Origin: Candidatus Omnitrophota bacterium | GTDB taxonomy: Bacteria > Omnitrophota > Gorgyraeia > Gygaellales > JAQTUX01 | Direction: 5' to 3' | NCBI GenBank assembly: GCA_028707125.1 | Contig: JAQTUX010000001.1 | Location: 269,639 to 333,638, forward strand | Length of the DNA stretch: 64,000 bases | Part shown: one piece after another, positions 3,001 through 19,176 of the stretch | Layout of the letters: every line of letters begins with the position of its first letter | How positions within the stretch are numbered: position 1 is the stretch's first letter | Translations under genes and position numbers: made by a program | The notes under the pieces: generated by a model | Databases searched by the model: none | The model's input: the letters and a program-made list of their open reading frames with translations, nothing else | Told to the model about the DNA's origin: nothing

Positions 3001-6000
3001 GCACTGCCACTCCTTCCCAGCTCCTGGACGTCAACGGCATTGCTAATGTGAACACGCTCTCCATAGGCGATACCACCGTTACATCCACTGCGGCAGAATT
3101 GAACATATTAGACGGCGTAACAGCCACCGCAACCGAGCTCAACTATGTTGACGGCGTAACATCAGCCATACAAACACAGCTGAACGCCAAGGTAGGTACA
3201 GCCACTTCATTCTCAGGAGACGTGACCGGCGCCTACAACGCCACAGTTGTCGGCAACGACTCCCACGACCACACCGCCTCAACCATCTCAGGGTTAGGCG
3301 TCTCTGACTTCACTTCAGCCGCCATCTCCCAGTGGACCAATGACTCCAACTTCATCACCGCTGCCTCTACCATCACTGGACTGATCCAGTCCACAGCCGC
3401 AGGCACAAGTTACATCACAGGCGGGGATGTAGGCATCGGGACTGCAGTGCCGGGAGAGAAACTTCATGTTTACAAAGAAAGTTTAACTGATAATAGTCAG
3501 GCAAAATTACTCAAGTTAGAAGGGAAGTTTAATGATGCTAGCATAGATAGCGATGATGTAATAGGAATTTCAGTAAAGGCGGTTAACTCTAGTGGGGGAT
3601 CCGGAGAGAATATGATTATTGGTGGCTCATGGGGAGGATCAGCGGTCAATACTTTATTAGCAGTAGATGGCGGCAACGTCGGCATCGGGACGACGGTGCC
3701 CGCGGCGAAATTGCATGTCTCGGCCCCGGCGGTTATTGCCGGCGGGTTTTATTCGGTCGCGGCAAATGACGCTGACGCGGATATCTGGGGTATTTCAACG
3801 ACCTATTATCCATCTCATGGAACAGCAGCCAACCAGTGGGGTATCAAGTGGCAGTCCACGCCGAACGCATTCTCTTTTGTGGGGAATGGCAGCGAGAAAT
3901 TAAACATCGATGTGGATACGGCAGGGCATATTTCGATGGTCGTGAACGGCGGCAACGTCGGCATCGGCTCAGCCGTGCCAGTTGCGAAACTTGATGTTGT
4001 CGGGACTGCCGAAGTGGACGGCCTCTCCATAGGCGGTACAGCAGTCACTCCCACCGCGGCTGAACTCAACTACGTTGACGGCGTAACCTCTGCCATACAG
4101 ACACAGCTTGACGCCAAGGTAGGCACAGCCACTTCGTTCTCAGGCGACGTGACCGGCGCCTACAACGCCACAGTTGTCGGCAACGACTCCCACGACCACA
4201 CTACCTCTACCATATCAGGGCTGGGTGTTGCTGACTTCTCCTCAGCCAACATCTCCCAGTGGACCAATGACTCCGGATATTTCAATACCAGTAACGACGG
4301 CGCAGGCAGCGGTTTGGACGCGGATATGGTGGATGGGTTGCATCCTACGCAATTCTTCAACGCCCACGGTCAGAATCACGGCACATATACGGACTTCAAT
4401 ACGCCTACAGATTTTGGATTTAGATACATTGTGGGTACCACAAACGGCCCTGGCATAGCCGGCGCAAGCCAATACTATAATCTTGGCATAGGGTTAGGTA
4501 ATGATTATGCCTATACAAGTTACGCTATGCAACTGGCGATTCCGAGAAACTTAAGCACTCCATATATATCTGTGAGATATAGAGAGAATGGAGCTTGGGG
4601 GTCGTGGTATAAGATTTATGCCGGATATGCTGATACCGCGGCCGCGCTTTCCAGCATGAACATCAGTCAGTTTACCAATAATTCCGGTTACTTTAATACT
4701 AGTAATGACGGCGCGGGAAGCGGCCTGGATGCTGACCTGCTGGACGGCCAAAGCAGCGCTTATTATATGACTGCCGCAACCGACAATTGGGTGAATACGA
4801 CCGGGGACACGATGAGCGGGAATCTGTATTTCAATAATTATGGGCTGGGAGTCATCGGCACCTATAGTGATATAAGATATCAGGGCGTATTTGCCATGGG
4901 CGATGCTTATAAGCTCGCTCTGGACGGTACGACATCAGGGACTTTATATGGCATTGCCTGGACCCATAGCAATATCGGAGGCCAATCCAAGGCGGGGTTA
5001 AGTCATCAGGCATTGTTTATGACAAATGGCGTGACTCAGACAGCAATAGGAACGGGTATATGGACGCTTGGCGGCTATACGCAAAGCGGGACAAGCACGA
5101 ATGCTTTTATGGGCAGCGTCGGCATCGGCACAGTGGCGCCGGGAGCGAAGCTGCATGTGACAAGCGCCAATACCGGAGCAGGGTTGTTGAGGTTGGATAA
5201 TACCGGTGGTTCAGCCGGGGATGTAAACGGGGTAGATTTTTATCATAATAACGGAACGTATTTACAGGCGTTTATACGCGATGAGATTCTGAGCAGCTGG
5301 CCCACGAAATTACATTTCGGCGTTGCCTCAACGAGCAACAACGCCGCGACAAAGATGACCATACAGGGGTCAAACGGCTACGTGGGCATCGGCACAGTGA
5401 GCCCGGCGGCGCATCTTCAGGTCGGCACAGGCACTCCCGGCTCTGCCACAGGCGCGGGCGACCTGTATGTGGCAAGCGACCTCGAGGTTGATTCCACCGC
5501 CTATCTTGACCTGGACGCGCGGGTAGGCCGCGACTTTATCGGCACAGCCGCCACTTCGTATATGTATATGACCGGCACGCTCACGGTTGACCTGGACAAC
5601 GACAACAATGGTACGGACAAGTTTTCTATAAGGGACGGCGGCAATACCGAGATATTCTACGTGAATGAAGATAACGGAGGCGGAGGCAATGTTGTGGCAA
5701 AGGGAGTCACCGAAGGCTCATACATAGGGTTATTCAAGGGCTTGGGTTCGCTTCCGGGCTACGGCTCCAGCCGTTATCCGACGCTGAAGACGGATTACTC
5801 CTACTTGTATTTCTCCGTTGCCGGCGCGTACTCCGCGTATATGGGCTCTAACGGCGTCCTGACCGCCCAATCCAGCCGCGAGAAGAAGGAGAACTTTAAG
5901 GAGCTTGACTTTGATAATGTCCTGGCAAAGATTGATAAAATGCCGGTTATGGAGTGGAACTACAAGAACGAAGAAGATTCCATAAAGCACATCGGCCCGT

Positions 6001-6179
6001 TTGCCGAGGATTTCCACGCGCTTTTCGGACTGAACGGCACCGATAATACAATGATCGGCCACAGCGACCCTCCGGGCGTTGCCCTCGCCGGCGTAAAAGG
6101 GCTGTATAGGAAGGTGAAGGAGCAGGAGAGGGTGATTGAAGAGCTGGAGACAAGGATAGCGGCGTTGGAGAAGAAGTAA
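3..6179 (+). CDS. Giant Thr/Gly/Ser-rich tail-fibre-like surface fibre protein, 5' end cut by the window edge
   Basis: The frame of the 129..6179 ORF stays open back to nt 3 (ELFTDDPGLSGAIGGGAATQESSGIYPPGQGWNTNGSQATVT then MYTTG). The module 'TMYxxGxY...R.Y.V.I' occurs at the first Met and again ~160 aa later, so the true start is probably upstream. Many copies of G(N/S)VGIGTxxPxxxLxV, ELN(F/Y)VDGVTSAIQTQL and GLDADxxDG motifs, as seen in phage tail-fibre-like proteins. I found no Cys in the 2016 aa shown. Confidence 0.85.
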   Translation, partial: ELFTDDPGLSGAIGGGAATQESSGIYPPGQGWNTNGSQATVTMYTTGTYASTAPQNRSYKVQIDTAGNTFSWWYMDDTTNWTNTVGGSAVAMSTNSAGTDLNAGVKVYFSAASGTANDSWYFSASNGTAYGGYDSYAQTAAYTAGETRIYKDGDPFSPYYNKMVFQSGATKVTLDQLAGTVATNATIYNPAIVGANSGGLTMYSSGSYTGSESRAYQVKISSQGVAGTSSDKFQFKYGVNDWGPVGGTSITGSQQSLGDGIFISFSESNYTNDGTITGGSSSNPDQWSFNVVAGSTSTSAGGWTDSGTDVYSSAVTDNVAIGTTVPGGYKLNVSGTANATTLTEGTNAVPNATDHLGFFAATTSAQLAGVLSDETGSGGVAVFATSPTIATPIISTSATVPLVIGGSATTSDLSLQTTSAAGEAGADMHFLVGNNGQTEAMTILNSGYVGIGSTVPTAALDINGNIQVSGTITGTVATAGGWTDAGTSMYPTNVDDNVAIGTTDPGSYDLNVAGTANMGTLSIGGTAVTASATELNFVDGVTSAIQTQLDSKSAASDTLTGLVQSTAAGTSYITGGSVGIGTTSPQYLLDVDKSATGNYIAHIKNSGTASYGLFIEAGTDTGDYIVSVASKTGSNKFVIRGDGNVGIGTVAPTALLDVNGTANVNTLSIGDTTITPTAAELNFVDGVTSAIQTQLDAKVGTSTAFIGDVTGAYNATVVGNDSHDHTASTISGLGVSDFTSAAISQWTNDSNFITAASTITGLIQSTAAGTSYITGGSVGIGTAVPGGKLDIYADQSTEYALVARNTADANQITHAFDASAGNALFRLWDVNGGLNVNLAASGNSYLNGGNVGIGTAVPGSALEVQGNVTLNDRLIMSGDSIGATVDTAYNTIKGAIGPTINGLTLTGALVDSNFSDDNANITNVYGLKIATAVTGQYTTTNAYGLYVDQPTGATNNYGAYINGNLIVSGTITGTVAAAGGWTDAGTSLYNTELTDKVGIGTATPSQLLDVNGIANVNTLSIGDTTVTSTAAELNILDGVTATATELNYVDGVTSAIQTQLNAKVGTATSFSGDVTGAYNATVVGNDSHDHTASTISGLGVSDFTSAAISQWTNDSNFITAASTITGLIQSTAAGTSYITGGDVGIGTAVPGEKLHVYKESLTDNSQAKLLKLEGKFNDASIDSDDVIGISVKAVNSSGGSGENMIIGGSWGGSAVNTLLAVDGGNVGIGTTVPAAKLHVSAPAVIAGGFYSVAANDADADIWGISTTYYPSHGTAANQWGIKWQSTPNAFSFVGNGSEKLNIDVDTAGHISMVVNGGNVGIGSAVPVAKLDVVGTAEVDGLSIGGTAVTPTAAELNYVDGVTSAIQTQLDAKVGTATSFSGDVTGAYNATVVGNDSHDHTTSTISGLGVADFSSANISQWTNDSGYFNTSNDGAGSGLDADMVDGLHPTQFFNAHGQNHGTYTDFNTPTDFGFRYIVGTTNGPGIAGASQYYNLGIGLGNDYAYTSYAMQLAIPRNLSTPYISVRYRENGAWGSWYKIYAGYADTAAALSSMNISQFTNNSGYFNTSNDGAGSGLDADLLDGQSSAYYMTAATDNWVNTTGDTMSGNLYFNNYGLGVIGTYSDIRYQGVFAMGDAYKLALDGTTSGTLYGIAWTHSNIGGQSKAGLSHQALFMTNGVTQTAIGTGIWTLGGYTQSGTSTNAFMGSVGIGTVAPGAKLHVTSANTGAGLLRLDNTGGSAGDVNGVDFYHNNGTYLQAFIRDEILSSWPTKLHFGVASTSNNAATKMTIQGSNGYVGIGTVSPAAHLQVGTGTPGSATGAGDLYVASDLEVDSTAYLDLDARVGRDFIGTAATSYMYMTGTLTVDLDNDNNGTDKFSIRDGGNTEIFYVNEDNGGGGNVVAKGVTEGSYIGLFKGLGSLPGYGSSRYPTLKTDYSYLYFSVAGAYSAYMGSNGVLTAQSSREKKENFKELDFDNVLAKIDKMPVMEWNYKNEEDSIKHIGPFAEDFHALFGLNGTDNTMIGHSDPPGVALAGVKGLYRKVKEQERVIEELETRIAALEKK
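2035..2345. repeat. Intragenic direct repeat copy A (~310 bp) in the fibre gene
   Basis: Encodes AAELNFVDGVTSAIQTQLDAKVGT..FIGDVTGAYNATVVGNDSHDHTASTISGLGVSDFTSAAISQWTNDSNFITAASTITGLIQSTAAGTSYITGG. The 48-nt run ccggcgcctacaacgccacagttgtcggcaacgactcccacgaccaca at 2131-2178 is identical in copies B and C. Confidence 0.9.
3135..3440. repeat. Intragenic direct repeat copy B
   Basis: Near-identical protein block (ELNYVDGVTSAIQTQLNAKVGTATSFSGDVTGAYNATVVGNDSHDHTAST...GLIQSTAAGTSYITGG). The identical 48-nt run lies at 3226-3273. Confidence 0.9.
4060..4270. repeat. Intragenic direct repeat copy C (shorter)
   Basis: ELNYVDGVTSAIQTQLDAKVGTATSFSGDVTGAYNATVVGNDSHDHTTSTISGLGVADFSSANISQWTNDS. The identical 48-nt run lies at 4153-4200. 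A more diverged partial copy is at ~1600-1740. Confidence 0.85.
5871..6176 (+). other. C-terminal intramolecular chaperone / autoproteolysis domain (peptidase S74, endosialidase-tailspike type)
   Basis: SSREKKENFKELDFDNVLAKIDKMPVMEWNYKNEEDSIKHIGPFAEDFHALFGL...GVALAGVKGLYRKVKEQERVIEELETRIAALEKK. It has the S-x-x-x-K-x-N start, the W.Y..E....H.G.IAQ-like core and a terminal coiled coil typical of this domain. Confidence 0.8.
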
Positions 6180-6187
6180 GACCAAAA

Positions 6188-6308
6188 GCGTATATCAGAT
6201 TATCAGTGTGTCAGTTAGAGTTTATCAGTTTATCAGAATATCAGAGAGAATGACCAATGTCCAATTTACCAATGACGAATGAAATCACAATGACTCAAAT
6301 CCCAAATA
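6188..6308. repeat. Left arm of a long imperfect inverted repeat built from TATCAG units
   Basis: Five TATCAG units (6193, 6201, 6223, 6231, 6239). 6188-6198 gcgtatatcag is the exact reverse complement of 6759-6769, and 6269-6283 ccaatgacgaatgaa is the exact reverse complement of 6677-6691. Confidence 0.8.
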
Positions 6309-6655
6309 GAAAGTATGATTTGCGGGAGAGAACTGCTAAATTTGGAGAAAACATAGTTAATTTCGCGAAGAGCATACCTGAAAATAGTGTGAATAGGCCA
6401 TTAATAAGTCAGCTAGTAAGGGCAGGTACGAGCGTAGGAGCTAATTATTGTGAAGCAGACGATGCCTCAACAAGGAAGGACTTCTTTTACAAAATTGGGA
6501 CCTGTAGGAGAGAATCAAAAGAGTCTAAGCATTGGCTTAGGATGATAACGACTGCTGTGCCTTCTTTGAAGGCTGAAGCCGAACTGTTCTTAAACGAGGC
6601 TCAAGAGTTAAATTTGATATTTTCCGCCATTATTAATAGGGCCGGAAAACGTTAA
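6257..6655 (+). CDS. Four-helix-bundle protein ('23S rRNA intervening-sequence protein' family); the true start may be the ATG at 6290
   Basis: YDLRERTAKFGENIVNFAKSIPENSVNRPLISQLVRAGTSVGANYCEADDASTRKDFFYKIGTCRRESKESKHWLRMI matches the family hallmarks (..QL.RA.TS.GAN..E......KDF..K......E..E...WL). The first 11 codons of the track ORF lie inside the left repeat arm. The region is visibly more AT-rich than its neighbours. Confidence 0.85.
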   Translation: MSNLPMTNEITMTQIPNRKYDLRERTAKFGENIVNFAKSIPENSVNRPLISQLVRAGTSVGANYCEADDASTRKDFFYKIGTCRRESKESKHWLRMITTAVPSLKAEAELFLNEAQELNLIFSAIINRAGKR

Positions 6656-6932: not shown

Positions 6933-7709
6933 ATGTCCGGTTATTTTCTGAGGCTAATCAAGGCGCGGCATATTCTGCGAAGCATGGTCCTGAAGAACTT
7001 GAAGGACAAATATGTCGGCTCAACACTGGGTATCTTCTGGGCGGTGATAAACCCCCTGTTGATCATGTCGGCCGTATCCTTTGTTTTCACTCAGGTGATG
7101 CAAACCCCGATACGGCGCTACCCGCTGCTGGTATTAAGCGCCTACCTTCCCTGGAATTTCTTCGTTAACTCCGCCACTGAAAGCGCCGCCTGCATAAGGC
7201 AGAATCAAGGCATACTCTCTCAATACACCATCCCCCGCGAGGCCATACCCGTATCAGTCGCGCTCGCCGATTTCCTGAACTTTTTATTCGGATTCGCGGC
7301 GATGCTGCCGATATTCATCTTCATGAACAGGGGGGCCGCGGGATGCCTGTGGCTGCTGCCTTTGGTAATGGCCCTGCATCTGGCATTCACCGTCGGGATC
7401 TCCTTATTGTTCAGCATCATCAATATATATTTCAGGGATTTTTCCCAGCTCCTGGGAGTGGGAATGCTGTTCTGGTTCTGGGTCACGCCGGTCTTCTACA
7501 CCCTGGAGATGATGCCTGCCGGCCTTCGCGGGGCATTCCTGGCCAACCCCGCCACATGCTATACGGTTATTTACAGGGAATTATTATATAACGGCCGCTG
7601 CGGCGGCATATCCATGTGGGTATTGGCCGTTATCTTCGCTTTGGCGAGTTTGGCGGGTGGATACATCTTATTTGCCGCCAAAGAAAAGGATATCCTCAAG
7701 CATATTTAG
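6933..7709 (+). CDS. wzm: ABC-2 type polysaccharide/polyol-phosphate export permease (Wzm/TagG-like)
   Basis: 258 aa with ~6 hydrophobic segments. The N-terminal LKNLKDKYVGSTLGIFWAVINPLL motif is typical of ABC-2 permeases. It sits immediately upstream of the cognate ATPase. Confidence 0.85.
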   Translation: MSGYFLRLIKARHILRSMVLKNLKDKYVGSTLGIFWAVINPLLIMSAVSFVFTQVMQTPIRRYPLLVLSAYLPWNFFVNSATESAACIRQNQGILSQYTIPREAIPVSVALADFLNFLFGFAAMLPIFIFMNRGAAGCLWLLPLVMALHLAFTVGISLLFSIINIYFRDFSQLLGVGMLFWFWVTPVFYTLEMMPAGLRGAFLANPATCYTVIYRELLYNGRCGGISMWVLAVIFALASLAGGYILFAAKEKDILKHI

Positions 7710-10421
7710 ATGATAACGCTGGAAGACGTTTGGCTGAAATACAGGATAGCGTTCAAGGAAGGCGCGAGGGCCGTTTGCGAGGATTTCTGGGCGCTTAAGG
7801 GCATAGACCTGAATGTCGGCAAGGGAGAGTGTTTCGCGGTCATCGGAGAGAACGGCTCAGGCAAGACCACGCTCCTGAGGGTGATCAGCGGCATGCTAAT
7901 GCCTGACAAGGGCAGGGTGCGCCTGGGAGGAAGGGTCGCCGGGCTTATGGAGATACAGGCCGGTTTCCATCCTGAACTGACCGGCAGGGAGAATATCTAC
8001 AATATCTCGGCGCTTTCAGGCCTGAGCGCCGATGAGACAGGCGCCTGTTACGCGGACATGGTTGAGTTTGCCGCCATCGGCAGGTTCATCAACGCCCCGG
8101 TAAAGACATACTCCCAGGGCATGCTTGTGCGCCTTGCCTTTGCCATAGCCATACACGCGCGCACCGACATATTGCTGGTTGACGACATATTCGCGGTAGG
8201 CGATATTTATGCCCGGCGCAAGTGCATTAATAAGATGTTTGAGCTGAAGGATAAGGGCCTGACCATTATTTTTGTTTCTCATGACCTGGATATTGCCAGG
8301 CGGCTGTGTAAAAGAGGCGTGCTGCTCAGGGAAGGCAGGGTTATCAGGGCCGGTTCAATAGACGGACTCGTCAGTTATTATCTTGAGACGGTAGGCAATA
8401 AGGAAGGTATAGCCCTGCTGCAAAAAGGGCGGCTGGCAATTATTTTTAATAACGGCAAGCTGATCATCAGGTGGAACGACTCCGCTCTTACCAAGGGCGC
8501 GGCCGGGCATACGGTGATGAGCTCTTCGGGCAGGACATATCAGTCAGATACCGCCTCCTGGATTATCCGGCAGCCGGCGGCAGCCGATGAGATCGTTGCC
8601 GTAGGCAGGTGGCCGGATATGCCGGCTGAGCTTATCTGGAAGATACGCTGCCGCGGCGAAAAGGAATTCAGCTGGGATGTAACTCTGCAGGCGCGCGCAC
8701 AGGCCCGGATAGAGGATTACACGGCCAGATTGATCCTGACCGACGAATACGAGGGCTGGTTTACATCGCAGGAGGAATACGTTTTTCCGGAGGCGTTCCT
8801 GCATGAGAACGAATGGCAGAGCCGCCGGATAGACGATCATCTTAACTGGCTGATAGGGTTAAAGACGGGAGCCGATAGCGGCGAAGGCCTGCCAACGCTT
8901 GTTTTAGACAGCTCAGGCGCGGATAAACAGGGCGCCTGCCAGATCGGCAATACCGGCATTGAGGCCTCTGCCAGAGGTATTCAGTTCAATTACGTTAATC
9001 CGGAACCAGAGCATGCCGCGGGCAGCTATAAGTTTTTTTCAACCGGCGTGAAGTTATTTGAGGAGCGGGACAGGCAGGATTTTGAATGTTATATGGCGCG
9101 GGCAAGGCAGGCCGGCAGGCGCAGGATCATCAGCCGCGGCCCGCTCGCCCTGTGTTGCGGGCAGCGCAAAATAGAGATTTTCCTGCGGGATGCGCTTTTA
9201 AGCAGCGGCGCGGGGCTGGATACGAAATTCATCTGGCAGGGCCGTACCTACAGCGCCGCCGGAGGTAACTGGTCCGTAGAAAAAGAAGGAGATAATTATC
9301 TTGTAGTTAATATCTTTTGGGGGCCCGAAGCGCCTTTTTTCCAGGTATGGAGAATGGAACTGCGGGATGAGTCCGCCATTTTCTGGCAGGCGGATATGGA
9401 AATAAGAGATGGGCTGGAGATCAGGAACAGGCAGGTTGAGCTTTTTCTCAGCGGCCGATATGACAGGTGGTTTACGCCTTCGGAAAACGGCGACTTTGGG
9501 GCAGTGGAAAAAAAAGGCAACACAGTCATACTAAGTAAATACATAAACGATTTTTCCGGCGTAGAACAGTCCTGCCTTATGCCGGCGGTTACCTTCGCCA
9601 ATCAAGACGGCCGCGCCAGAGTGTCGTATATTTCCCGGGGCCAGGACAAGGAATTAAATACGAAGCTGCATTATCTGGAGATAGATCCCGCCGCTGACGC
9701 GGCGCTTGAAGCAGGCAGGCACGCCTTTTTTAAGGGGGCCATAAGGATAGCGCCCAGGCAGGGACAAAAAGGCGTTGACGCGGTTGTCAATAATAACGGC
9801 GCGGCCGCGGCGATAAATTTTAACGGCGTTTCTCTGGATTTCAGGCACGGCAGGATGCGTCTTTTCTATGAAGGCGTTGAATTGACAAAAGGGCTGGGCC
9901 TTTACTCTGCGGTTTTGCATGAAGGCAACTGGCATGATTCTTCGCAGGGACTATGGAAGGTCGAGGCCTCGGACAGGGAAAGGTTCGTCGCCGTGGGCCG
10001 CTGGCCGTGGCTGCCTGTCAGGCAGGAATGGGAAGTAACGCTATTGGATGGCCGCGATATCATCTGGCGCATAACCAGGGATACCCGGGACGGCTTTGAT
10101 CCCGACAAGGAGCAGGTTAACCTGATGCTGTCGGATAATTACCGGGAGTGGTTTGTCCGGGAAAGGGCGCGGGGAAGGTTTCCCGAAGAGTTTGCCGAGC
10201 ATACCCGCGGCGGGTTCTGGGAGCGGTTATGGTCGGCGGCAGCGCAGTCGCCGGTCGGCGCCAAAGGGCCTGGGCTGCCGTCTGTCCTCCTGGACTGTTC
10301 AGAGAGCCCGGTTCCCGGCCGCCTGTGCATTGAGAACACGGACGCGTTATTCAAGGCCAGGGTCCTGCAGTGCGAATCGGCGCAGCAAAAACATTTTAGC
10401 GGAAAGATAAAGATATGCTGA
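7710..10421 (+). CDS. wzt: ABC exporter ATP-binding protein (Wzt/TagH-like) with a ~670-aa C-terminal extension made of three copies of an unassigned module
   Basis: Walker A GENGSGKTT, signature-like YSQGMLVRLAFA, Walker B ILLVDDIFAVGD, H-loop VSHD within aa 1-230. The ATG abuts the stop of the permease gene. The extension (nt ~8400-10418) has three ~200-aa repeats at ~8415-9075, ~9125-9760 and ~9805-10418. Confidence 0.9.
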   Translation: MITLEDVWLKYRIAFKEGARAVCEDFWALKGIDLNVGKGECFAVIGENGSGKTTLLRVISGMLMPDKGRVRLGGRVAGLMEIQAGFHPELTGRENIYNISALSGLSADETGACYADMVEFAAIGRFINAPVKTYSQGMLVRLAFAIAIHARTDILLVDDIFAVGDIYARRKCINKMFELKDKGLTIIFVSHDLDIARRLCKRGVLLREGRVIRAGSIDGLVSYYLETVGNKEGIALLQKGRLAIIFNNGKLIIRWNDSALTKGAAGHTVMSSSGRTYQSDTASWIIRQPAAADEIVAVGRWPDMPAELIWKIRCRGEKEFSWDVTLQARAQARIEDYTARLILTDEYEGWFTSQEEYVFPEAFLHENEWQSRRIDDHLNWLIGLKTGADSGEGLPTLVLDSSGADKQGACQIGNTGIEASARGIQFNYVNPEPEHAAGSYKFFSTGVKLFEERDRQDFECYMARARQAGRRRIISRGPLALCCGQRKIEIFLRDALLSSGAGLDTKFIWQGRTYSAAGGNWSVEKEGDNYLVVNIFWGPEAPFFQVWRMELRDESAIFWQADMEIRDGLEIRNRQVELFLSGRYDRWFTPSENGDFGAVEKKGNTVILSKYINDFSGVEQSCLMPAVTFANQDGRARVSYISRGQDKELNTKLHYLEIDPAADAALEAGRHAFFKGAIRIAPRQGQKGVDAVVNNNGAAAAINFNGVSLDFRHGRMRLFYEGVELTKGLGLYSAVLHEGNWHDSSQGLWKVEASDRERFVAVGRWPWLPVRQEWEVTLLDGRDIIWRITRDTRDGFDPDKEQVNLMLSDNYREWFVRERARGRFPEEFAEHTRGGFWERLWSAAAQSPVGAKGPGLPSVLLDCSESPVPGRLCIENTDALFKARVLQCESAQQKHFSGKIKIC

Positions 10422-13400
10422 AGGGCCTTTTATTTAATAACAGGAACAGGCGCGCGATAGAACGCGCCGGCATAAAAATAGATATTGATGAAGAGCGCCG
10501 CTTCAGGATCTACCATAACGGCAGCGAGCTCAGCAAGCTGCAGGGCATGCGCGTCTGTTTGTTTTCAGAGGGCAGATGGCACTATTTTCCCGCCAAAGAC
10601 AGTATCTTGAAGATAAGCAGGCCCGATGAAACCAGTTTTAGTTTGCGGCTTTACAATAGAACGCTGCCTGTTGTCCTGCATTGGGGAATGGAGCTGGGTG
10701 AGGGCAGCCGGTTGAAATGGAGCGTGGAATTAGAGCTAAAGGGGCCCATACGGCTGGATGCCGTGAAGGCCGTAGTGCTCCTCAGCCGTTCCTATAAAAG
10801 CTGGTTCTCTTATTCCGGCGCTAAAGAGGGCCTGTTCGCTGATAGCGCCGGAGAATTCCGGCAGGAGATCGGTATTGCCGATTCTGATTTTTTAAGCATT
10901 GGCGCGGACAGGCCGGAAATTGCCACGCTGCTGTTAAGGGCGGTTGATTCGCCTTTAAATGTTTCTTTGTGTAACACGGATGATCTGTCTTCCTCGCGTG
11001 AAGTTGATCTCTGCTGCAACGGGCAGAAGGAATTTTATGCCCCCGGCAGGCACTCTTGTTTTCAGGCGGTTATTGAACTCTGCGGGGATAAGTCCGCAGT
11101 AGAAAATATCATTCAGGATGTAAAAGGCAGAAAGAGGCGCGAAGAAGAAGAGGCGCTGCGTAAAAAGGAAGAGGAGCGCCTGGCGGAAGAAGAACAGCGC
11201 CGGCTAGAGGAAGAACGCCTGCGCCAGGAGGAACAAAGGCGCCTGGAAGAAGAGCGCCGAAAACAGGAAGAGCTCAAGCGCCTGGAAGAAGAGCGCCTGA
11301 GAATTGAGCGCGCGCGGGACCGGCAGCGGCGCACGCTTGAGGCGGGTGATTTCAGGATTTATTTTGACTACAATAACCGTTTCCATTTCTACCACAGGAA
11401 TGAGGAGTTTACCAAGGCGCATGGCCTGCATACGGGTATATTTTCAGAGGGCCGCTGGTATGGTTCGGCGGATTCAGAGGCCGCTATAGAGAATAGTGAG
11501 CCGGGTAGATTAAGGATCAATTTCAGGCACAGACATCTGCCCGTTATTCAATCCTGGGACCTGCGGTTAGATTCCGCGGGAGTAATCAGGTGGAGCGTTG
11601 ATATGCGGCTTGAGCAGCCGTTAAGGATAGAGCGCAGGAACGCCTGCCTGTTTTTGTCCCGCGCCTATGACAGGTGGCTTGCGCCTCCGGACGCGGGGGC
11701 GTTCCCCGCGGCATTCGGCCTGCAATGGCAGATGGCCAGCCCTTCGGAGAGCAGGCCGGGCTTTATAGGGCTGACGTCCGGGATGAAGCAGCTGCCGGGC
11801 ATAACATTAAAGGGCTCCGAAGACGGCGGCCGCCTGGCTGTTCATAACGCGGATATGGATGTCTCATCCCGCGTCCTTGAGGAGCGTTTTGAAGAGCGCG
11901 TAGAGTTTTACAAGGCAGGCGATTACTCTTTCTCGCGGGCGGTCATCCGGCTTTATAATGATAACGCGGCCATCGAGGGCGCGTTCAAAGAGGCGGAAGA
12001 AAAAGAGAACGCGCTCAGAGAGTTGCGCAAAGAGCGGCTGAGGCGCGCCGCCGGGCTAAGGCAGGGGAGAAAAGAATTTGAGGGGCTGCGCCTGCGCCCC
12101 GCGGCCTCGCGCGTCGTTATTTACGGCGATTCCCAGGGCCTGCACGATAAGATCAGCGGCGAGGCAGGCGGTTTTAACAGGGCCGTAGCGTGCATTAAGG
12201 CAGAAAGCGGCACAGCCGCGGTAGGTATCTCACGGTTTAATTTCTTCAAGATCCATGAGGTCGTCCAGTTCATCTCTACTTTGAGGAACGCGCGGATCGA
12301 TACGCGCCCTGTCTGCCTGCCGCTGTTTCCGGCAAGCGGTATTTACTCCAGTTTTCTTAATTACATAAAGGAGATCAAATCTCTCGTCGCAGGAAAGGGC
12401 ATCGAACTTTTCTTAAAAGACGTTGATCTGCTCAAACTCCTGCAGGCTGTGTCTTCGCAGTCCAATAGAGATAACGAGAGGGACCTGCTGCGGCTTCTGG
12501 GGCTGATAGCCGAGCATCCCTTTATCGGGCCGCAGACGCTGGTCCTCGACACAACGCATAAATGCAATACAAACTGCGCCCATTGCTGGATACACAACCC
12601 CCGCAGCAAGACGCCCCCCGCCGTGCTCGAATCAAAGATGGACGACCGCCTGTACAGGAAGATCATTGACGACGCGGCAGCCATTTTGAGCGACGAGGTC
12701 ATAATACAGGGCGACGGAGAGCCGCTTCTGGACGACCGCTTTATCGAGATGGCGCGTTACGCCAGGGACAAGGGGTTAAAGGTCCTGTTCTTTACCAACG
12801 GCATACTCCTGGATGAGGCGACGGCTAAATGCCTGATAGACCTGGAGGTCAATGAGATATTCTGCAGCCTGCCCGCCGGGACCGACCTGACCTACAGCTG
12901 GATAAATTCGCGGCAGTCAAAAGACACCTTCCACAGGATCGTCGGCAATCTGAAAAACCTGATCTCCCTGAGGAACGGCTCGGGCAGGCCCCTGCCGCTT
13001 TTGCAGATGACCCACGTGATACACAATATGAATTGCCATGAGATCGAGCAGATGTCCGCTGTTGACGCGGACATAGGCGCGGACAGGGCACGCTTCTACC
13101 TGGCCCGCCTTGACGAGAACATCGCGCATTTAAAGATACTATCTTCACAGGTAGAGGCGCTAAAGGCATCCCTGCGGAAGGCCGCCGCGTTGCTTAAAGA
13201 AAGCAAAATAGACCTGCAGGACAATATTTTTTTCCAGCTGGACAATTATCAGCCGGAGACCGGTTACTGGTCGCAGGGCCGTTTTCTTGAAACGGGCTGC
13301 CCGGTGGGGTGGTTTTTCGCGCTGATATTGGCTGGAGGAGAATTGAGCATGTGCTGCCATATGCGGGTGGTCGGGCGCCTGGGGGAAAGATCGCTGAGGG

Positions 13401-13588
13401 AGGCGTGGAATTCCCGGGAATACAACGATTACAGGGTCAAGGCCAAACATATGCGGGACAATATGGACGCGCGTTTCTCAAACGGCGTCAAGCTTTACGA
13501 TGATTTCTGCAATCATTGCGATACGCATCAGGTGATCTTAAGGATAAACGGCCTGCTGGAGCGATACGGGCTGAAGAAATTCTTATAA
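10415..13588 (+). CDS. Multidomain radical-SAM protein: two copies of the Wzt-extension module, an E/R coiled coil, a linker domain and a C-terminal rSAM/SPASM-like catalytic domain
   Basis: CX3CX2C at 12563-12586 (HKCNTNCAHCW), GDGEPLL, and C-terminal Cys motifs GELSMCC...CNHCDTH. The modules lie at ~10472-11085 and ~11336-11965. The gene overlaps the wzt stop by 7 nt. Confidence 0.8.
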   Translation: MLKGLLFNNRNRRAIERAGIKIDIDEERRFRIYHNGSELSKLQGMRVCLFSEGRWHYFPAKDSILKISRPDETSFSLRLYNRTLPVVLHWGMELGEGSRLKWSVELELKGPIRLDAVKAVVLLSRSYKSWFSYSGAKEGLFADSAGEFRQEIGIADSDFLSIGADRPEIATLLLRAVDSPLNVSLCNTDDLSSSREVDLCCNGQKEFYAPGRHSCFQAVIELCGDKSAVENIIQDVKGRKRREEEEALRKKEEERLAEEEQRRLEEERLRQEEQRRLEEERRKQEELKRLEEERLRIERARDRQRRTLEAGDFRIYFDYNNRFHFYHRNEEFTKAHGLHTGIFSEGRWYGSADSEAAIENSEPGRLRINFRHRHLPVIQSWDLRLDSAGVIRWSVDMRLEQPLRIERRNACLFLSRAYDRWLAPPDAGAFPAAFGLQWQMASPSESRPGFIGLTSGMKQLPGITLKGSEDGGRLAVHNADMDVSSRVLEERFEERVEFYKAGDYSFSRAVIRLYNDNAAIEGAFKEAEEKENALRELRKERLRRAAGLRQGRKEFEGLRLRPAASRVVIYGDSQGLHDKISGEAGGFNRAVACIKAESGTAAVGISRFNFFKIHEVVQFISTLRNARIDTRPVCLPLFPASGIYSSFLNYIKEIKSLVAGKGIELFLKDVDLLKLLQAVSSQSNRDNERDLLRLLGLIAEHPFIGPQTLVLDTTHKCNTNCAHCWIHNPRSKTPPAVLESKMDDRLYRKIIDDAAAILSDEVIIQGDGEPLLDDRFIEMARYARDKGLKVLFFTNGILLDEATAKCLIDLEVNEIFCSLPAGTDLTYSWINSRQSKDTFHRIVGNLKNLISLRNGSGRPLPLLQMTHVIHNMNCHEIEQMSAVDADIGADRARFYLARLDENIAHLKILSSQVEALKASLRKAAALLKESKIDLQDNIFFQLDNYQPETGYWSQGRFLETGCPVGWFFALILAGGELSMCCHMRVVGRLGERSLREAWNSREYNDYRVKAKHMRDNMDARFSNGVKLYDDFCNHCDTHQVILRINGLLERYGLKKFL
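11125..11335 (+). other. Highly charged E/R/K/L heptad-like coiled-coil segment (~70 aa)
   Basis: RKRREEEEALRKKEEERLAEEEQRRLEEERLRQEEQRRLEEERRKQEELKRLEEERLRIERARDRQRR, with internal repeats of (E)EQRRLEEER(L/R)R. Confidence 0.8.
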
Positions 13589-13593
13589 AAGAT

Positions 13594-15798
13594 ATGAAGA
13601 TATCATTGGTAAATCTGCCCTGGAGGAGTTTTGGCAGGGAGGGGGTGAGGGCTGGTTCCCGCTGGCCGCATTTGAAGGCCCGCTCGGAGAAAGAATATCT
13701 GCCTTTCCCCTTTTTTCTCGCCTACGCGGCGGCGCTGCTTAAAAAGAACGGATTTAACGCGCGGCTCATTGACGCCATCGCCAGCGGCCTGTCTTACAGG
13801 CGGTTTTCGCGCCGGATGCGCTCCAGCCGCCCCGACATCCTGGTCTGCGAGACGTCCACGGTGACCCTCAAGCATGACTTGCGGGTCCTGAAGGGCCTGG
13901 GGAGCAAGGCGGAGATCATCCTTTGCGGCCCGGATGTCAATATCCGCCGGCCGGATTTTCTCAGGGAGAACGGATTTATAAAATATGTGCTGTCCGGAGA
14001 ATATGAATTTACGCTCCTTGAACTGCTGCAGCATCTTGATGAGGGCCGCGGCCTTGATGAGGTAAAGGGGATCATATACCGCTCTAACGGCGGCGTGAAG
14101 ATCAATCCCGCGCGGCCCCTGGTTGACCTGGACCGCCTGCCCTGGCCTCTGCGCGAAGGCCTGCCGATGTCGCGTTACAACGATGCCCCGGGAGACATAC
14201 CCATACCGTCGGTGCAGATGATGGCCTCACGCGGCTGCCCGTTTCGCTGCAAGTTCTGCCTCTGGCCGCAGGTGATGTATCAGGGCAGCCATTACAGGGC
14301 CAGGAGCGTCGTGGACGTCGTTGATGAAATGGAATACCTGGTCAGGAATTCGGGATACAGGTCGGTCTATTTTGACGACGATACCTTTAACTGCGGCAAA
14401 GAAAGGATGCTCGGCCTCTGCGCTGAGATCAAGAAGAGGGGCCTGAATATCTTCTGGGCGATAATGGCAAGGGCCGACCTGATGGATGAGGAGATCCTGG
14501 TGAATATGAAAGAGGCGGGGTTGTTTGCCGTCAAATACGGCGTGGAATCCGCCGATAACTCCCTGTTGGACAATATCAATAAGGGTATGTCGCTTGAAAA
14601 AACAGAGGCCGTCATCAAGATGACCAGGGCGCTGGGCATCAAGACCCACCTGACCTTTACCCTGGGCCTTCCGGGAGAGACCAGGCAGACCATAAAAAAG
14701 ACGGTTGATTTCGCCTTAAAGGCCGATCCGGAATCGCTTCAGTTTTCCCTGGCTACGCCGTTTCCGGGAACGGAGTTCTACAGGGAGATGAAGGAGAACG
14801 GCCGGATAATCTCCGCTGATTGGGCAAGATACGATGGAAGCCGCAGCAGCGCGCTCGCCTATGACGATCTCTCCGCGGGCGAGCTTGAGCGCGCCATGAG
14901 GTCGGCTTACAGGCGGTGGGCAATGCACCGTTTGAAAAGGGCCCGTTTTGACCGATTGGGGCTAAAGGCGTATTGCCGCTATTCCCTTGTCAATTCAATA
15001 AATAGCAACGGAATTGTCATGACCGCTTATAAGGTTTCGCGGTTTGCTTTCAGGTACGCGCTTATGCACGTGAGGGAGGCGTTGGTGTCCTCGCCCCGTA
15101 AGATTGAAAACATCGCGCGGGAAAAGGGGTTGAAACTGGGAAGGATGTCCCTGGTCCCGGACGGCCGCGGCCTGAGTTTGTTCTGGGGCGGCCTCAAGTT
15201 GACCCGCGGACGCGGATTTTACAGCTTTCTAAATTTTGAAGGCGCGGATAACGGCAGCGACGGCGCGCTTAAATGGGACACGCAGAGGCCGGACGCGGGC
15301 AGCATTATATTGAGGCGCCTGTATGACGGCGCCGGCATTGAGGAGATATGGAAGATAACCGCGCTGGATGAAAAGCAGATCGGCTGGGACGTGGATATTG
15401 AAATAAAAAAAGAGACGGGTGTGCGGCAGGAAGATATCGGCCTGGCGCTTACGCGCAAATACCGCAAGTGGATAGAAGAATGGGGCGAGGGCAGGTTTCC
15501 CCCTTTGAACGATTACCGCGAAGTTGAGCTCAGGAACGCGCGCAGCGCCGTTGTCGGCGTAAGGGGCAGGAGGGCATTGAGGAATACTCTGCCCACGGTC
15601 CTGCTTGACCTGTCCGCCGGCAATAACGGTTTTCTCCCGTCGGTAGGGAACTCGGCAGAAGGGCATCACGGCCGCCTGCTCGGGGTCAGGCTCGCGCGAG
15701 GGGCCCGCGTCCGCAGATACGCCGCCGGAAGGCACAGGTTGTTGTCGGCCAGGATAAAGATAGTGGAAGAGGATTTCGCGAAGGGCGGGCGAAGATGA
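13594..15798 (+). CDS. B12-binding-domain (class B-like) radical-SAM protein with one C-terminal copy of the Wzt-extension module
   Basis: The ATG at 13594 (MKISLVNLPW) is preferred to the track start at 13516, which overlaps the upstream gene. Rossmann-like N-terminal domain (DILVCETST...IILCGPD...VLSGEYE), ASRGCPFRCKFCLWP, and a module at ~15150-15790 (LSLFWGGLKLTRGRGFY...LPTVLLDLS). Confidence 0.85.
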   Translation: MKISLVNLPWRSFGREGVRAGSRWPHLKARSEKEYLPFPFFLAYAAALLKKNGFNARLIDAIASGLSYRRFSRRMRSSRPDILVCETSTVTLKHDLRVLKGLGSKAEIILCGPDVNIRRPDFLRENGFIKYVLSGEYEFTLLELLQHLDEGRGLDEVKGIIYRSNGGVKINPARPLVDLDRLPWPLREGLPMSRYNDAPGDIPIPSVQMMASRGCPFRCKFCLWPQVMYQGSHYRARSVVDVVDEMEYLVRNSGYRSVYFDDDTFNCGKERMLGLCAEIKKRGLNIFWAIMARADLMDEEILVNMKEAGLFAVKYGVESADNSLLDNINKGMSLEKTEAVIKMTRALGIKTHLTFTLGLPGETRQTIKKTVDFALKADPESLQFSLATPFPGTEFYREMKENGRIISADWARYDGSRSSALAYDDLSAGELERAMRSAYRRWAMHRLKRARFDRLGLKAYCRYSLVNSINSNGIVMTAYKVSRFAFRYALMHVREALVSSPRKIENIAREKGLKLGRMSLVPDGRGLSLFWGGLKLTRGRGFYSFLNFEGADNGSDGALKWDTQRPDAGSIILRRLYDGAGIEEIWKITALDEKQIGWDVDIEIKKETGVRQEDIGLALTRKYRKWIEEWGEGRFPPLNDYREVELRNARSAVVGVRGRRALRNTLPTVLLDLSAGNNGFLPSVGNSAEGHHGRLLGVRLARGARVRRYAAGRHRLLSARIKIVEEDFAKGGRR

Positions 15799-18169: not shown

Positions 18170-19176
18170 TCGTGAAGCCGAAATTCTGCTGCGTGGCGGC
18201 TACGGATTACTGTATGCTGCGCTGTAAAATGTGCAATAAATGGCAGGAGAGGTCCCCCCGGCCCGACGAGGTCCCTTCCCTGGATGAGTGGAAGAACTTT
18301 ATCGCCGCTTTCAGGGAGCTGGTGGACGAGGGTTTTGAGATGGATTTCGGCGGCGGCGAGGCGTTGTCGCTGCCGGGCATCCTGGAACTTGTAAAATTCG
18401 CCAAGGGCAGGGGCTTCCGTACCACCCTTGCCTCCAATGGCTATCTTATAGATAAAGAGATGTCCAGAAGGATAGCCGACTCCGGCCTTGATGCGGTCAG
18501 CCTGTCTCTGGACAGCCCTTATCCTGAAGTCCACGATAAGATGCGCGGCGTAGAAGGTGTTTATCAGCGCGTAATGGCCGCGCTGGATAATCTCTCTTTA
18601 TATTCCCCTTCAACCAGAAAGGGCCTTTGCTGCATAATTATGAATGAAAATATGGACAGTTTGATACGGCTGGCTGATATGGCTGATAAAGACCCCCGCG
18701 TTGACTGGCTTTATTTTATGTCGGTGGTCCAGCCCAATTACAGCGGCCCGCTGGACAGCGCCTGGCGCGATGAATACAGCTATCTTTGGCCGCGGGATAC
18801 CAGGCGGCTGCAAGACATAATAGATGAGTTGATACGCAGGAAGGCTGACGGCTCAAAGGTGAGCAACCGGCCCGAGCACCTGCGCGCCTACAAGGCCTAT
18901 TTCGCCGACCCAAAGACGTTTGTGAACAAGGCGAAGTGTATCGTGGGCGGGGCGGCGATAAGTGTGAATACCTACGGCTTCATTCAGCTTTGTTTTTTCA
19001 TGGATTTTATCGGCAACATCAGGAAGGATGATATCCGCAAACTCTGGTATTCTCAGGGCGCGGAGTCGGTAAGAGGCAAGGTAGGCGCCTGCAAGGCCAA
19101 TTGCCATCTGCTTCTTAATTGCTGTTATATAGAAGACGATCCCGAGTTATATTCCGTAAATAATGAAAGCCGTTAG
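18166..19176 (+). CDS. SPASM/twitch-type radical-SAM paralog P2 (closest to P1)
   Basis: FCCVAATDYCMLRCKMCNKW, GGGEAL, SNGYLIDKEMSRRIADSGL, KCIVGGAAISVNTYGFIQLC, IGNIR, CKANCHLLLNCCYIEDD. Shares a ~35-nt near-identical stretch with P1 (agggagctggtggacgaggg.tttgagat.gat). Confidence 0.85.
   Translation: MIVKPKFCCVAATDYCMLRCKMCNKWQERSPRPDEVPSLDEWKNFIAAFRELVDEGFEMDFGGGEALSLPGILELVKFAKGRGFRTTLASNGYLIDKEMSRRIADSGLDAVSLSLDSPYPEVHDKMRGVEGVYQRVMAALDNLSLYSPSTRKGLCCIIMNENMDSLIRLADMADKDPRVDWLYFMSVVQPNYSGPLDSAWRDEYSYLWPRDTRRLQDIIDELIRRKADGSKVSNRPEHLRAYKAYFADPKTFVNKAKCIVGGAAISVNTYGFIQLCFFMDFIGNIRKDDIRKLWYSQGAESVRGKVGACKANCHLLLNCCYIEDDPELYSVNNESR

Follow-up and report, generated by a model that had tools for sequence, protein, structure and literature searches.

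A previously undescribed, putatively sugar-binding module common to a radical SAM enzyme and the adjacent Wzt-like exporter in Omnitrophota, with an E/R-rich spacer that looks like a single alpha-helix

In ABC-transporter-dependent glycan synthesis, long alpha-helical spacers are exemplified by WbdD (E. coli O9a and K. pneumoniae O3 and O5) and WbbB (K. pneumoniae O12), both of which are coiled-coil rulers associated with Wzm/Wzt loci. The partner Wzt of these systems bears an additional binding module at its C-terminus (PMC11231755, PMC3482155), the O7 terminator has an extra CBM, and a binding module attached to Wzt together with a protein carrying a long helical spacer are regarded as joint markers of terminator-controlled synthesis (PMC11231755). 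A second point of reference is provided by the ER/K single alpha-helices (SAH) of the myosin VI medial tail, myosin X and INCENP, which consist of ~70% E/R/K, are dense in i/i+3 and i/i+4 pairs and lack a hydrophobic seam (PMC5812594, PMC4571873, PMC5347031). An earlier note had likened an E/R-rich segment of a radical SAM (rSAM) protein from a Candidatus Omnitrophota bacterium to the coiled coil of WbdD. The literature on Omnitrophota rSAM arrays, on mutarotase-like domains of Wzt and on rSAM enzymes in O-antigen ABC pathways yielded no description of such a system.

The stretch of DNA analysed here (64,000 nucleotides, hereafter the window) contains a Wzm/Wzt ABC-transporter glycan locus in which, as in the WbdD and WbbB systems, Wzt carries extra C-terminal modules and is accompanied by an enzyme of several domains whose long alpha-helical spacer differs in length between lineages (Table 1). 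The gene for this enzyme (the target) follows wzt immediately, as had been stated, its open reading frame overlapping the 3' end of the wzt-like gene by 7 nt. The proposed layout of two modules, a second charged helix, a linker domain and an rSAM domain is likewise borne out by the paralogy of modules A and B (28% identity, E = 2e-30), by Pfam and by the AF2 model. Among related loci, retrieved with the alignment of the catalytic domain, the order wzm, long wzt, target rSAM gene and B12-rSAM gene is kept, the B12-rSAM with its C-terminal module recurs in orthologous loci, and natural Wzt-module-rSAM fusions exist; the conserved synteny and the fusions support the functional tie to Wzt that had been supposed.

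Table 1. Features of the wzm-wzt-rSAM locus (nucleotide positions within the window; residue numbers refer to the protein concerned).
Feature	Residues	Positions	Strand	Basis or remark
wzm-like ABC-2 permease gene		6933..7709	+	Pfam ABC2_membrane E = 1e-10
wzt-like ABC ATPase gene, 903 aa		7710..10421	+	Pfam ABC_tran; NCBIfam TagH/Wzt-like matches
Wzt NBD	aa 1-234			
Wzt GalM-like module, first		8412-9080		module HMM iE 8e-87
Wzt GalM-like module, second		9120-9764		module HMM iE 1e-77
Wzt GalM-like module, third		9807-10418		module HMM iE 5e-71
Target rSAM/SPASM gene, 1057 aa; module-helix-module-helix-alpha/beta domain-rSAM		10415..13588	+	ORF + Pfam
Module A, GalM-like beta-supersandwich	aa 12-230	10448..11104	+	module HMM iE 3e-82; AF2 strands aa 14-223, pLDDT ~90
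Helix 1, ~12 nm	aa 226-305	11090..11329	+	AF2 unbroken helix
E/R-rich ER/K core inside helix 1	aa 239-306	11129..11332	+	
Imperfect tandem DNA repeats in helix-1 coding region		11166..11300	+	TRF scores 58 and 105; direct-repeat families
Module B, GalM-like beta-supersandwich	aa 305-521	11327..11977	+	
Helix 2, ~5.9 nm, moderately charged	aa 517-555	11963..12079	+	AF2
Conserved alpha/beta 'linker' domain before rSAM core	aa 560-700	12092..12514	+	AF2 pLDDT ~90; strongly conserved in orthologues
Radical SAM core + SPASM		12551..13585	+	Pfam Radical_SAM 2.6e-12, SPASM 3.8e-07
rSAM domain	aa 713-849			
CxxxCxxC motif	aa 717-724	12563-12586		
SPASM domain	aa 962-1013			
B12-binding rSAM gene, downstream		13516..15798	+	Pfam, NCBIfam; HpnJ-like but below family cut-off
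GalM-like module (sixth of locus), C-terminus of B12-rSAM		15130-15771		module HMM iE 1.9e-28

Six copies of one module are spread over three adjacent genes, with three on Wzt, two on the target and one on the B12-rSAM. Its AF2 model (pLDDT 96.2) adopts a galactose-mutarotase-like supersandwich, and the top structural matches are nearly all carbohydrate-active proteins; domains of this fold are also known from proteins without a sugar role, YidC P1 and a PBCV-1 capsid protein among them, and this counts against a glycan-binding reading. Identity to known galactose-mutarotase-like domains (aldose 1-epimerases; GH2, GH38, GH94, GH97, GH174 and PL accessory domains; OpgG) is only 4%-14%, the 44 modules gave no consistent match to a Pfam family at E <= 1, and the module sequence matches no PDB chain. 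Unlike those domains, the module recurs as an appendage of transport and rSAM proteins in the cytoplasm. Its conserved columns are aromatic or polar (W49, W82, Y119, W122, F131, N179 and R187 in alignment numbering). An active aldose epimerase was considered and rejected since, unlike in these enzymes, no evident His/Glu catalytic-type pair is seen in the conserved columns of the alignment. Like Wzt_C (PF14524), the module follows the NBD of Wzt on the C-terminal side and probably serves to recognise the polymer for export. The Wzt_C domain, however, is a ~150-aa beta-sandwich, whereas the module is a GalM-like supersandwich of ~215 aa that forms tandem arrays of 2-8 and is also found on enzymes; no Pfam match to Wzt_C is present in either Wzt or the target.

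An exhaustive profile search recovered 617 representatives matching the module profile, in the architectures NBD-M2-7, M-CH-M-CH-rSAM, NBD-M5-rSAM, NBD-M2-rSAM, B12rSAM-M-rSAM-M and GT-C-M2-4, and all fusion partners are glycan-pathway proteins. The GT-C fusions contain 7-12 TM segments by a crude hydropathy count, which does not resolve the side of the membrane on which the module lies. From the fold, the conserved Trp/Tyr/Phe/Asn/Arg columns and the exclusive fusion to glycan-pathway proteins, we infer that the module binds glycan. The rSAM enzyme and the adjacent Omnitrophota exporter thus appear to have in common a putative module of sugar-binding type that had not been described. The earlier reading of the two target modules as glycan-binding-like gains support, since modules of this family also occupy the C-terminus of Wzt, which is the site of the glycan-recognition module in known systems (PMC11231755).

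The E/R-rich segment between modules A and B is real and extends to within 4 nt of the coordinates originally assigned to it (11125-11335), but it looks like a stiff, salt-bridged single alpha-helix, not a WbdD-type coiled coil. In the 71 residues from aa 237 to 307, 52 are charged (24 E, 21 R, 6 K and 1 D), and the charged fraction of helix 1 is 69%-73%. We assessed the helix by criteria for SAH taken from the literature (PMC5812594, PMC5347031, PMC4571873), using simplified, home-made coiled-coil and SAH scores alongside control sequences. In the best heptad register, the hydrophobic occupancy of a/d positions is 0.25-0.27 and 65% of these positions are charged; occupancy is 0.80 in GCN4 and 0.85 in tropomyosin, and the myosin VI ER/K helix has 0.19 versus 0.27 for helix 1. 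Hydrophobic-moment z-scores range from -0.7 to 0, and for 98-103 degrees per residue the helix shows no amphipathic moment. Pairs of opposite charge at i/i+3 and i/i+4 number 0.83 per residue, a salt-bridge density in line with the myosin VI ER/K helix (1.08), compared with 0.18 in GCN4 and 0.27 in tropomyosin. The simplified Waggawagga-type SAH score comes to 0.54; the SAH control has 0.64 and the two coiled-coil controls 0.09-0.16. With neither a heptad core nor an amphipathic moment and with an ER/K signature, the segment is not a canonical coiled coil, which is one of the outcomes that the earlier note had named as refuting its reading, although helix 1 includes nine Leu/Ile and atypical coiled coils may escape sequence rules.

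In the best of five AF2 models, helix 1 is a single straight 80-residue helix without hairpin or packing, and an intramolecular helical hairpin joining modules A and B was accordingly dismissed. The pLDDT drops below 50 in mid-helix (aa 243-271), so that a partly disordered linker may take the place of the full helix. Further likenesses to ER/K SAH are a charge period of 7 residues in the coding repeats, the bridging of two folded domains and the ease with which the segment is mistaken for a coiled coil. Unlike the known examples, the helices here are bacterial and occur in enzymes of glycan assembly as well as in Wzt ATPases; in helix 1 Arg, not Lys, is the prevailing basic residue, Leu is somewhat more abundant (17% versus 8% hydrophobic), and a monomeric state is probable. 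The second charged helix, with the sequence FKEAEEKENALRELRKERLRRAAGL at aa 529-553, is not ER/K-like here (simplified SAH score 0.16), and the orthologous position holds up to 139 aa.

The lengths of these spacers vary widely. Among two-module orthologues, the inter-module linker measures 23-149 aa and the linker from module to catalytic domain 31-139 aa, the two lengths not being significantly correlated (rho 0.43, p 0.19, n = 11). In a three-module sister clade, the helices are replaced by linkers with constant lengths of 12 aa and 9 aa, and the Wzt-rSAM fusions are devoid of the helix; its absence from some orthologues is a second outcome that the earlier note had named as refuting its reading. 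The internal near-repeats reported for the DNA exist but are modest, TRF finding 2.3 copies of a 39-nt period with 75% matches (11210-11300) and 2.4 copies of a 21-nt period (11166-11216). Recent events are apparent in related loci: L003 contains a perfect 108-nt x 2 duplication with a base period of 21 nt, and L001 has perfect 17-aa repeats plus an assembly gap. Rather than as a conserved structural element, the helix thus behaves as a tunable spacer, with the tandem duplication of units based on 7 aa expanding and contracting it. The predicted variability of the coil holds between orthologues, whereas no polymorphism was seen at strain level, the closest relative (90% identity) encoding a protein of exactly the same length; in this pair, helix 1 is the least conserved of all regions (80% identity versus 87%-94% elsewhere). 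Charged helices also occur at several other inter-module positions, including within Wzt proteins.

Pfam detects only Radical_SAM and SPASM in the target and none of the kinase, methyltransferase or GT domains of terminators, and no TM-like segment is present. C717, C721 and C724 are invariant and the SPASM residues C962 and C981 are conserved among orthologues. The NCBIfam rSAM scores all fall far short of the family cut-offs; TIGR04317 comes out best, at 101.8 bits where 380 are required. The nearest solved relatives are DesII and BlsE, sugar-modifying rSAM enzymes that have auxiliary-cluster domains (sequence E about 2e-3; Foldseek E = 2e-15 and 1e-13, respectively), which are only 15%-17% identical to the target and both act on carbohydrates; unlike the target, they use nucleotide-linked monosaccharide substrates and are devoid of binding modules and helices.

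We consider it somewhat better than an even chance that the E/R segment is a stiff, salt-bridged, probably monomeric ER/K single alpha-helix serving as a ~12 nm spacer between putative glycan-binding GalM-like modules at the N-terminus of an rSAM/SPASM enzyme. Under this explanation, Wzt, the target and the B12-rSAM would all dock on one lipid-linked polysaccharide at the cytoplasmic face, beside the Wzm-Wzt exporter, and the modules would anchor the rSAM domain to the polymer. The reach from one binding site to the other, and from the binding sites to the catalytic centre, would depend on the helices, and the enzyme might perform a radical tailoring or capping step prior to export. The original proposal, worked out as a model in which the helix is a ruler like that of WbdD or WbbB and keeps the rSAM protein, as terminator or capping enzyme, at a defined distance, so that only chains of at least a minimum length are capped, with the Wzt modules recognising the cap and licensing export, now seems distinctly unlikely, and a ruler/terminator role of the helix is weakened. 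It draws on the binding-type modules of Wzt, on the overlapping gene for a spacer protein directly downstream, on the Wzt-rSAM fusions that put the enzyme at the exporter and on the differences in spacer length among species, which are expected if chain length is tuned; moreover, a stiff SAH could in principle gauge distance without oligomerising. A crude scan of the plus-strand open reading frames of at least 150 aa in the 64-kb window detected no canonical coiled-coil protein, so that no alternative ruler is evident there. The helix nonetheless has no heptad hydrophobic core, unlike in WbdD and WbbB, and joins two binding modules instead of lying between the catalytic and the polymerase or membrane ends, so that the supposed holding of the catalytic domain at a distance by a long coil does not apply: only the 39-aa helix 2 separates module B from the catalytic half. 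The target further differs from these rulers in having no TM segment or, on a rough check, amphipathic membrane anchor, and in having an rSAM/SPASM domain where they have a kinase, methyltransferase or Kdo-transferase; its first 560 residues match no PDB chain at E <= 0.1, WbdD included. The spacer is missing from the entire sister clade; since this clade and the Wzt-rSAM fusions work with linkers of 9-12 aa, the enzyme family can do without it. A second enzyme, the B12-rSAM, bears the module as well, and the tandem modules of Wzt (3-7) suggest binding along the chain rather than to one cap. The original interpretation is thus partly supported: its tie to Wzt and, among orthologues, its variable helix length stand, whereas its coiled coil and WbdD-like placement do not. 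A modified form, in which the modules grip the polymer, a monomeric SAH in place of an oligomeric coiled coil sets the distance at which the rSAM enzyme, with the B12-rSAM, would add a radical-derived terminal cap, the Wzt modules read this cap to trigger export and repeat expansion acts as a glycan-length dial, strikes us as very doubtful.

The same length variation would fit an essentially neutral, repeat-driven low-complexity linker, altered by replication slippage between independent domains and without functional meaning in its length. The 0-149 aa range in close orthologues set beside the short fixed linkers of the sister clade, the recent perfect duplications, the low identity of helix 1 in the 90%-identical pair, the low AF2 confidence in mid-helix and the fact that the lengths of the two linkers are not significantly correlated all point in this direction. 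We nevertheless regard it as unlikely, given that the composition is tightly constrained wherever the segment is present (E/K/R with i/i+4 pairing, no Pro/Gly, always predicted helical), that like helices arose at several inter-module positions, Wzt proteins included, that neutral linkers are mostly disordered and rich in Gly/Ser/Pro/Thr, and that the 90%-identical proteins are exactly equal in length. The modules might instead be protein-protein docking domains that join Wzt, the rSAM and the B12-rSAM through module-module contacts, with the helix as a strut. One module type on three consecutive gene products, the covalent fusions of the partners, the non-sugar roles of some GalM-like folds (YidC P1, capsid protein) and the fact that the Wzt C-terminal domain of known systems dimerises speak for docking; the predominance of carbohydrate-active proteins among the structural matches, the conserved residue set typical for sugar-binding sites and the presence of the module C-terminal to GT-C glycosyltransferases without other partners speak against it. 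In addition, paralogous modules within a genome are only 19%-29% identical, against 38%-45% at orthologous positions, as differing ligand specificities would explain more readily than homotypic docking, and we give the docking possibility only a slim chance.

If the spacer reading is correct, the Wzt exporters of a whole candidate phylum use an undescribed substrate-recognition module, a tandem GalM-like supersandwich without a Pfam family but with 617 cluster representatives, and the 'Wzt plus CBM' paradigm would be broadened. Module-tethered rSAM enzymes would point to radical chemistry on lipid-linked polysaccharide at the export gate, for which we know of no characterised precedent. ER/K single helices, best known from eukaryotic motors, would here serve the glycan machinery of bacteria as evolvable spacers, lengthened by tandem duplication from ~20 to ~150 residues and offering a natural length series with which to probe spacer length against glycan length or modification spacing. 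The case also warns that composition alone cannot turn a 'coiled coil next to wzt' into a WbdD-type ruler.

Against the favoured explanation it also weighs that helix 2 is not of ER/K type in this genome and that most of the other rSAMs of the operon bear no module, so that the tethering logic covers just two of the 25. A 47-aa open reading frame conserved in the related loci L001 and L002, possibly a RiPP-type precursor, which would have altered how the rSAM array is read, has no counterpart in the window. Finally, a database protein identical to the target is annotated as 'radical SAM protein [Candidatus Omnitrophica bacterium]'.

The window holds a single long plus-strand operon in which the order wzm, long wzt, target gene, module-bearing B12-binding radical SAM (rSAM) gene and rSAM/SPASM gene is a conserved synteny. 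The target, a 1057-aa rSAM/SPASM protein, lies directly after wzt, as the earlier note stated, with overlapping ORFs; its E/R-rich segment is real, every string quoted in that note being recovered by translation, and the proposed rSAM catalytic domain is matched by Pfam Radical_SAM and SPASM. The internal near-repeats reported in the helix-coding DNA were likewise recovered (TRF) as imperfect tandem repeats with periods of 21 and 39 nt. Of the 71 residues around the segment (aa 237-307), 52 carry a charge (24 E, 21 R, 6 K, 1 D). An identical protein is on deposit as 'radical SAM protein [Candidatus Omnitrophica bacterium]'. The catalytic half falls below every NCBIfam cut-off; DesII and BlsE, two rSAMs that act on sugars, are its closest solved relatives in both sequence and structure.

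Twenty-one of the 25 rSAM-domain ORFs in the 64-kb window are nearly consecutive, interrupted by only two GDSL-TPR genes; most are rSAM/SPASM paralogues of ~330-350 aa, the remainder being B12-rSAM, TPR-rSAM or HemN-like. Together with GT2 and GT4 transferases, a Bac_transf initiating transferase, a Wzy_C-TPR protein and a PMT_2 GT-C, they make the window a glycan locus with an extraordinary complement of radical enzymes, for which a literature search found no paper on a comparable locus with an rSAM array. The interspersed GDSL-TPR proteins may act on glycans as O-acyl transferases or as esterases.

Coordinates of features in the window
Feature	Position	Strand	Remark
2016-aa protein	129-6179		directly upstream of glycan operon
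132-aa 23S_rRNA_IVP family protein	6257-6655		between 2016-aa protein gene and wzm
Wzm-like ABC-2 permease	6933-7709	+	operon start
Wzt-like ATPase, 903 aa	7710-10421	+	directly before target
Target, 1057 aa	10415-13588	+	7-nt overlap with wzt
E/R segment of target	aa 239-306, nt 11129-11332	+	by translation
Radical_SAM domain of target	aa 713-849	+	Pfam
SPASM domain of target	aa 962-1013	+	Pfam
HpnJ-like B12-binding rSAM	13516-15798	+	272 bits versus cut-off 578; module at 15130-15771
rSAM-domain ORFs (25)	10415-41636 (21 ORFs), 52144-53067, 54154-55731, 60711-62890	+	
GDSL-lipase/acylhydrolase-TPR fusions (four paralogues)	19163-20449, 32047-33357, 41614-42825, 59398-60798	+	interspersed in rSAM array

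The interpretation of the E/R segment as a coiled coil was not supported. In the best heptad register of helix 1, the a/d positions are 25% hydrophobic and 65% charged, the hydrophobic moment does not exceed that of shuffled sequences (z -0.9 to 0) and the leucines are spaced by 8, 8, 5, 8, 10, 3 and 5 residues, leaving no seam. Heptad occupancy and charge-pair metrics cleanly separated coiled-coil from single alpha-helix (SAH) controls: a/d hydrophobic occupancy and opposite-charge i/i+3, i/i+4 pairs per residue were 0.80 and 0.18 for GCN4, 0.85 and 0.27 for tropomyosin, 0.19 and 1.08 for the myosin VI ER/K SAH, and 0.27 and 0.83 for helix 1. A simplified Waggawagga-type SAH score, normalised to EEEEKKK (after PMC5812594), was 0.54 for helix 1 compared with 0.64 for the SAH control and 0.09-0.16 for the coiled-coil controls. 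The AF2 model of the full-length target (pLDDT 88.3) contains one straight helix of ~12 nm (aa 226-305), with no hairpin or packing and with low confidence mid-helix; helix 2 (aa 517-555, ~5.9 nm) is not ER/K-like in this genome (simplified SAH score 0.16). ER/K helices are routinely mistaken for coiled coils (PMC4571873, PMC5812594); the E/R segment most probably forms a spacer consisting of a single alpha-helix.

The two domains flanking helix 1, modules A and B, are paralogues (28% identity, E = 2e-30). Wzt ends in an extension of 650 aa that had no annotation and consists of three further copies, and a sixth forms the C-terminus of the B12-rSAM (iE 1.9e-28, module HMM); therefore, one module of ~215 aa is common to three consecutive gene products. 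In predicted structures the module is a galactose-mutarotase (GalM)-like 'glycoside-hydrolase-type carbohydrate-binding' supersandwich, and its nearly invariant columns (Trp, Tyr, Phe, Pro, Asn, Arg and Thr) look like a binding-site rather than a catalytic signature. It is not the known Wzt_C CBM (Pfam), had no consistent Pfam match across 44 members even at E <= 1, and matched no PDB chain by sequence. Because of the GalM-like fold and the context, the description of these domains as putative glycan-binding modules is well supported, binding itself remaining putative.

When 1.84 billion cluster representatives were searched exhaustively with a profile, 617 proteins with 1-8 module copies matched at E <= 1e-3 (261 at E <= 1e-30), and all those with a source name come from Omnitrophota. 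Among the best 153 of the 617, for which architectures were classified, most consist of a Wzt nucleotide-binding domain (NBD) followed by 2-7 modules, and the target-type module-helix-module-helix-rSAM order recurs. In P0013 (RKY36779.1, Ca. Omnitrophota; NBD-M5-rSAM, where M is a module) and P0090 (NBD-M2-rSAM), the NBD of the exporter ATPase, 2-5 modules and an rSAM of the target's family are naturally joined in one polypeptide. GT-C/PMT_2 (PMT_2/GT39) membrane glycosyltransferases with 7-12 TM segments (crude count) carry 2-4 C-terminal modules (P0021, P0059, P0096, P0105, P0107, P0123 and P0136). The module on the B12-rSAM is kept in orthologous loci, and in one clade (clade 2 below) this protein is joined to a further rSAM, yielding a 1400-aa B12rSAM-M-rSAM-M protein, the architecture of P0080.

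Only four close homologues of the target were found among 5.8 billion proteins. The one that is 90% identical has exactly the same length, so that no strain-level indel was seen and the suggested length variation between strains found no counterpart; helix 1 is its most diverged region (80% identity versus 87-94% elsewhere). A genome scan retrieved 30 loci, nearly all from Omnitrophota MAGs, in two clades. Helix length does vary between orthologues, and some have no helix: in clade 1 (59-64% catalytic-domain identity) the inter-module linker spans 23-149 aa and the module-to-catalytic linker 31-139 aa, some members having one module and no ER/K helix, whereas clade 2 (47-51% identity; L019-L031) has three modules whose linkers are invariant, measuring 12 aa from one module to the next and 9 aa before the catalytic half. 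P0013 also lacks the charged helix (inter-module linkers 3-12 aa; 9 aa before the catalytic half). The invariant clade 2 linkers, set against 23-149 aa in the two-module clade, suggest that the helix may replace a module as spacer. Orthologue helices are assembled from tandem repeats, with perfect 51-nt repeats (17-aa units) and an assembly gap (run of N) in the helix-1 coding region of one orthologous locus (L001 8757-10000) and a perfect 108-nt x 2 duplication with a base period of 21 nt (7 aa) in another locus, L003. Modules A and B of L001 end identically, and the helix starts are identical too, suggesting either gene conversion or mis-assembly. In locus L002, the gene is broken by a frameshift where module B ends (about L002 9950-10010). 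ER/K helices also lie between modules in some Wzt proteins. Given its variable length, its absence from some orthologues, its tandem repeats and its occurrence in Wzt, the ER/K helix is a facultative spacer, fast-evolving but compositionally constrained. A neutral, repeat-driven linker is considered unlikely.

The best-supported reading, held with moderate confidence, is a module-tethered rSAM with an ER/K spacer acting on an exported polysaccharide. Through their GalM-like modules the target, the B12-rSAM next to it and the Wzt ATPase would all be tethered to one lipid-linked polysaccharide on the cytoplasmic side; the helix, as a stiff monomeric spacer, would determine how far the protein reaches from one binding site to another and to the catalytic centre, and the target would carry out its radical step, tailoring or capping, at the point of export or shortly before. 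This reading builds on the observed architecture, fold, distribution, helix properties and length variation, whereas glycan binding, a monomeric helix, tethering and the reaction are inferred. The earlier note proposed instead a WbdD-like ruler and chain terminator with radical capping, an analogy that is reasonable because a Wzt-attached CBM is paradigmatically paired with a coiled-coil terminator, one terminator having its own CBM (PMC11231755); a crude scan of the window also turned up no further coiled-coil candidate. However, helix 1 has no heptad core and sits between two binding modules, the target has neither a terminator-type catalytic module nor a TM anchor, and clade 2 as well as the Wzt-rSAM fusion P0013 do without the spacer. 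The observation behind the ruler model was confirmed and its interpretation partly supported, several defining coiled-coil ruler/terminator features being absent; we consider that model quite improbable. A ruler built on an SAH is very doubtful, and modules serving as protein-protein docking domains, at odds with the binding-site-like columns, are highly improbable.

The proposed tethered rSAM is a variation on known kinds: a glycan enzyme tethered by binding modules, a spacer of ER/K type and a recognition module attached to Wzt. What is new is an undescribed GalM-like module family common to exporter and radical enzymes, and a set of bacterial ER/K helices that form a natural series of lengths.

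Two orthologous loci (L001 15792-15935, L002 15415-15558) share a conserved 47-aa ORF after their third rSAM gene, with the pattern MAqTNxQKF..C...G.FYA..RGF.Y.AWR..C.R..IDWR.FS; this ORF has no counterpart in the window. Upstream of wzm, the 23S_rRNA_IVP protein belongs to a four-helix-bundle family, and the sole domain of the 2016-aa protein, at its C-terminus, is Peptidase_S74 (endosialidase intramolecular chaperone), an arrangement known from tail-spike or fibre-like proteins.
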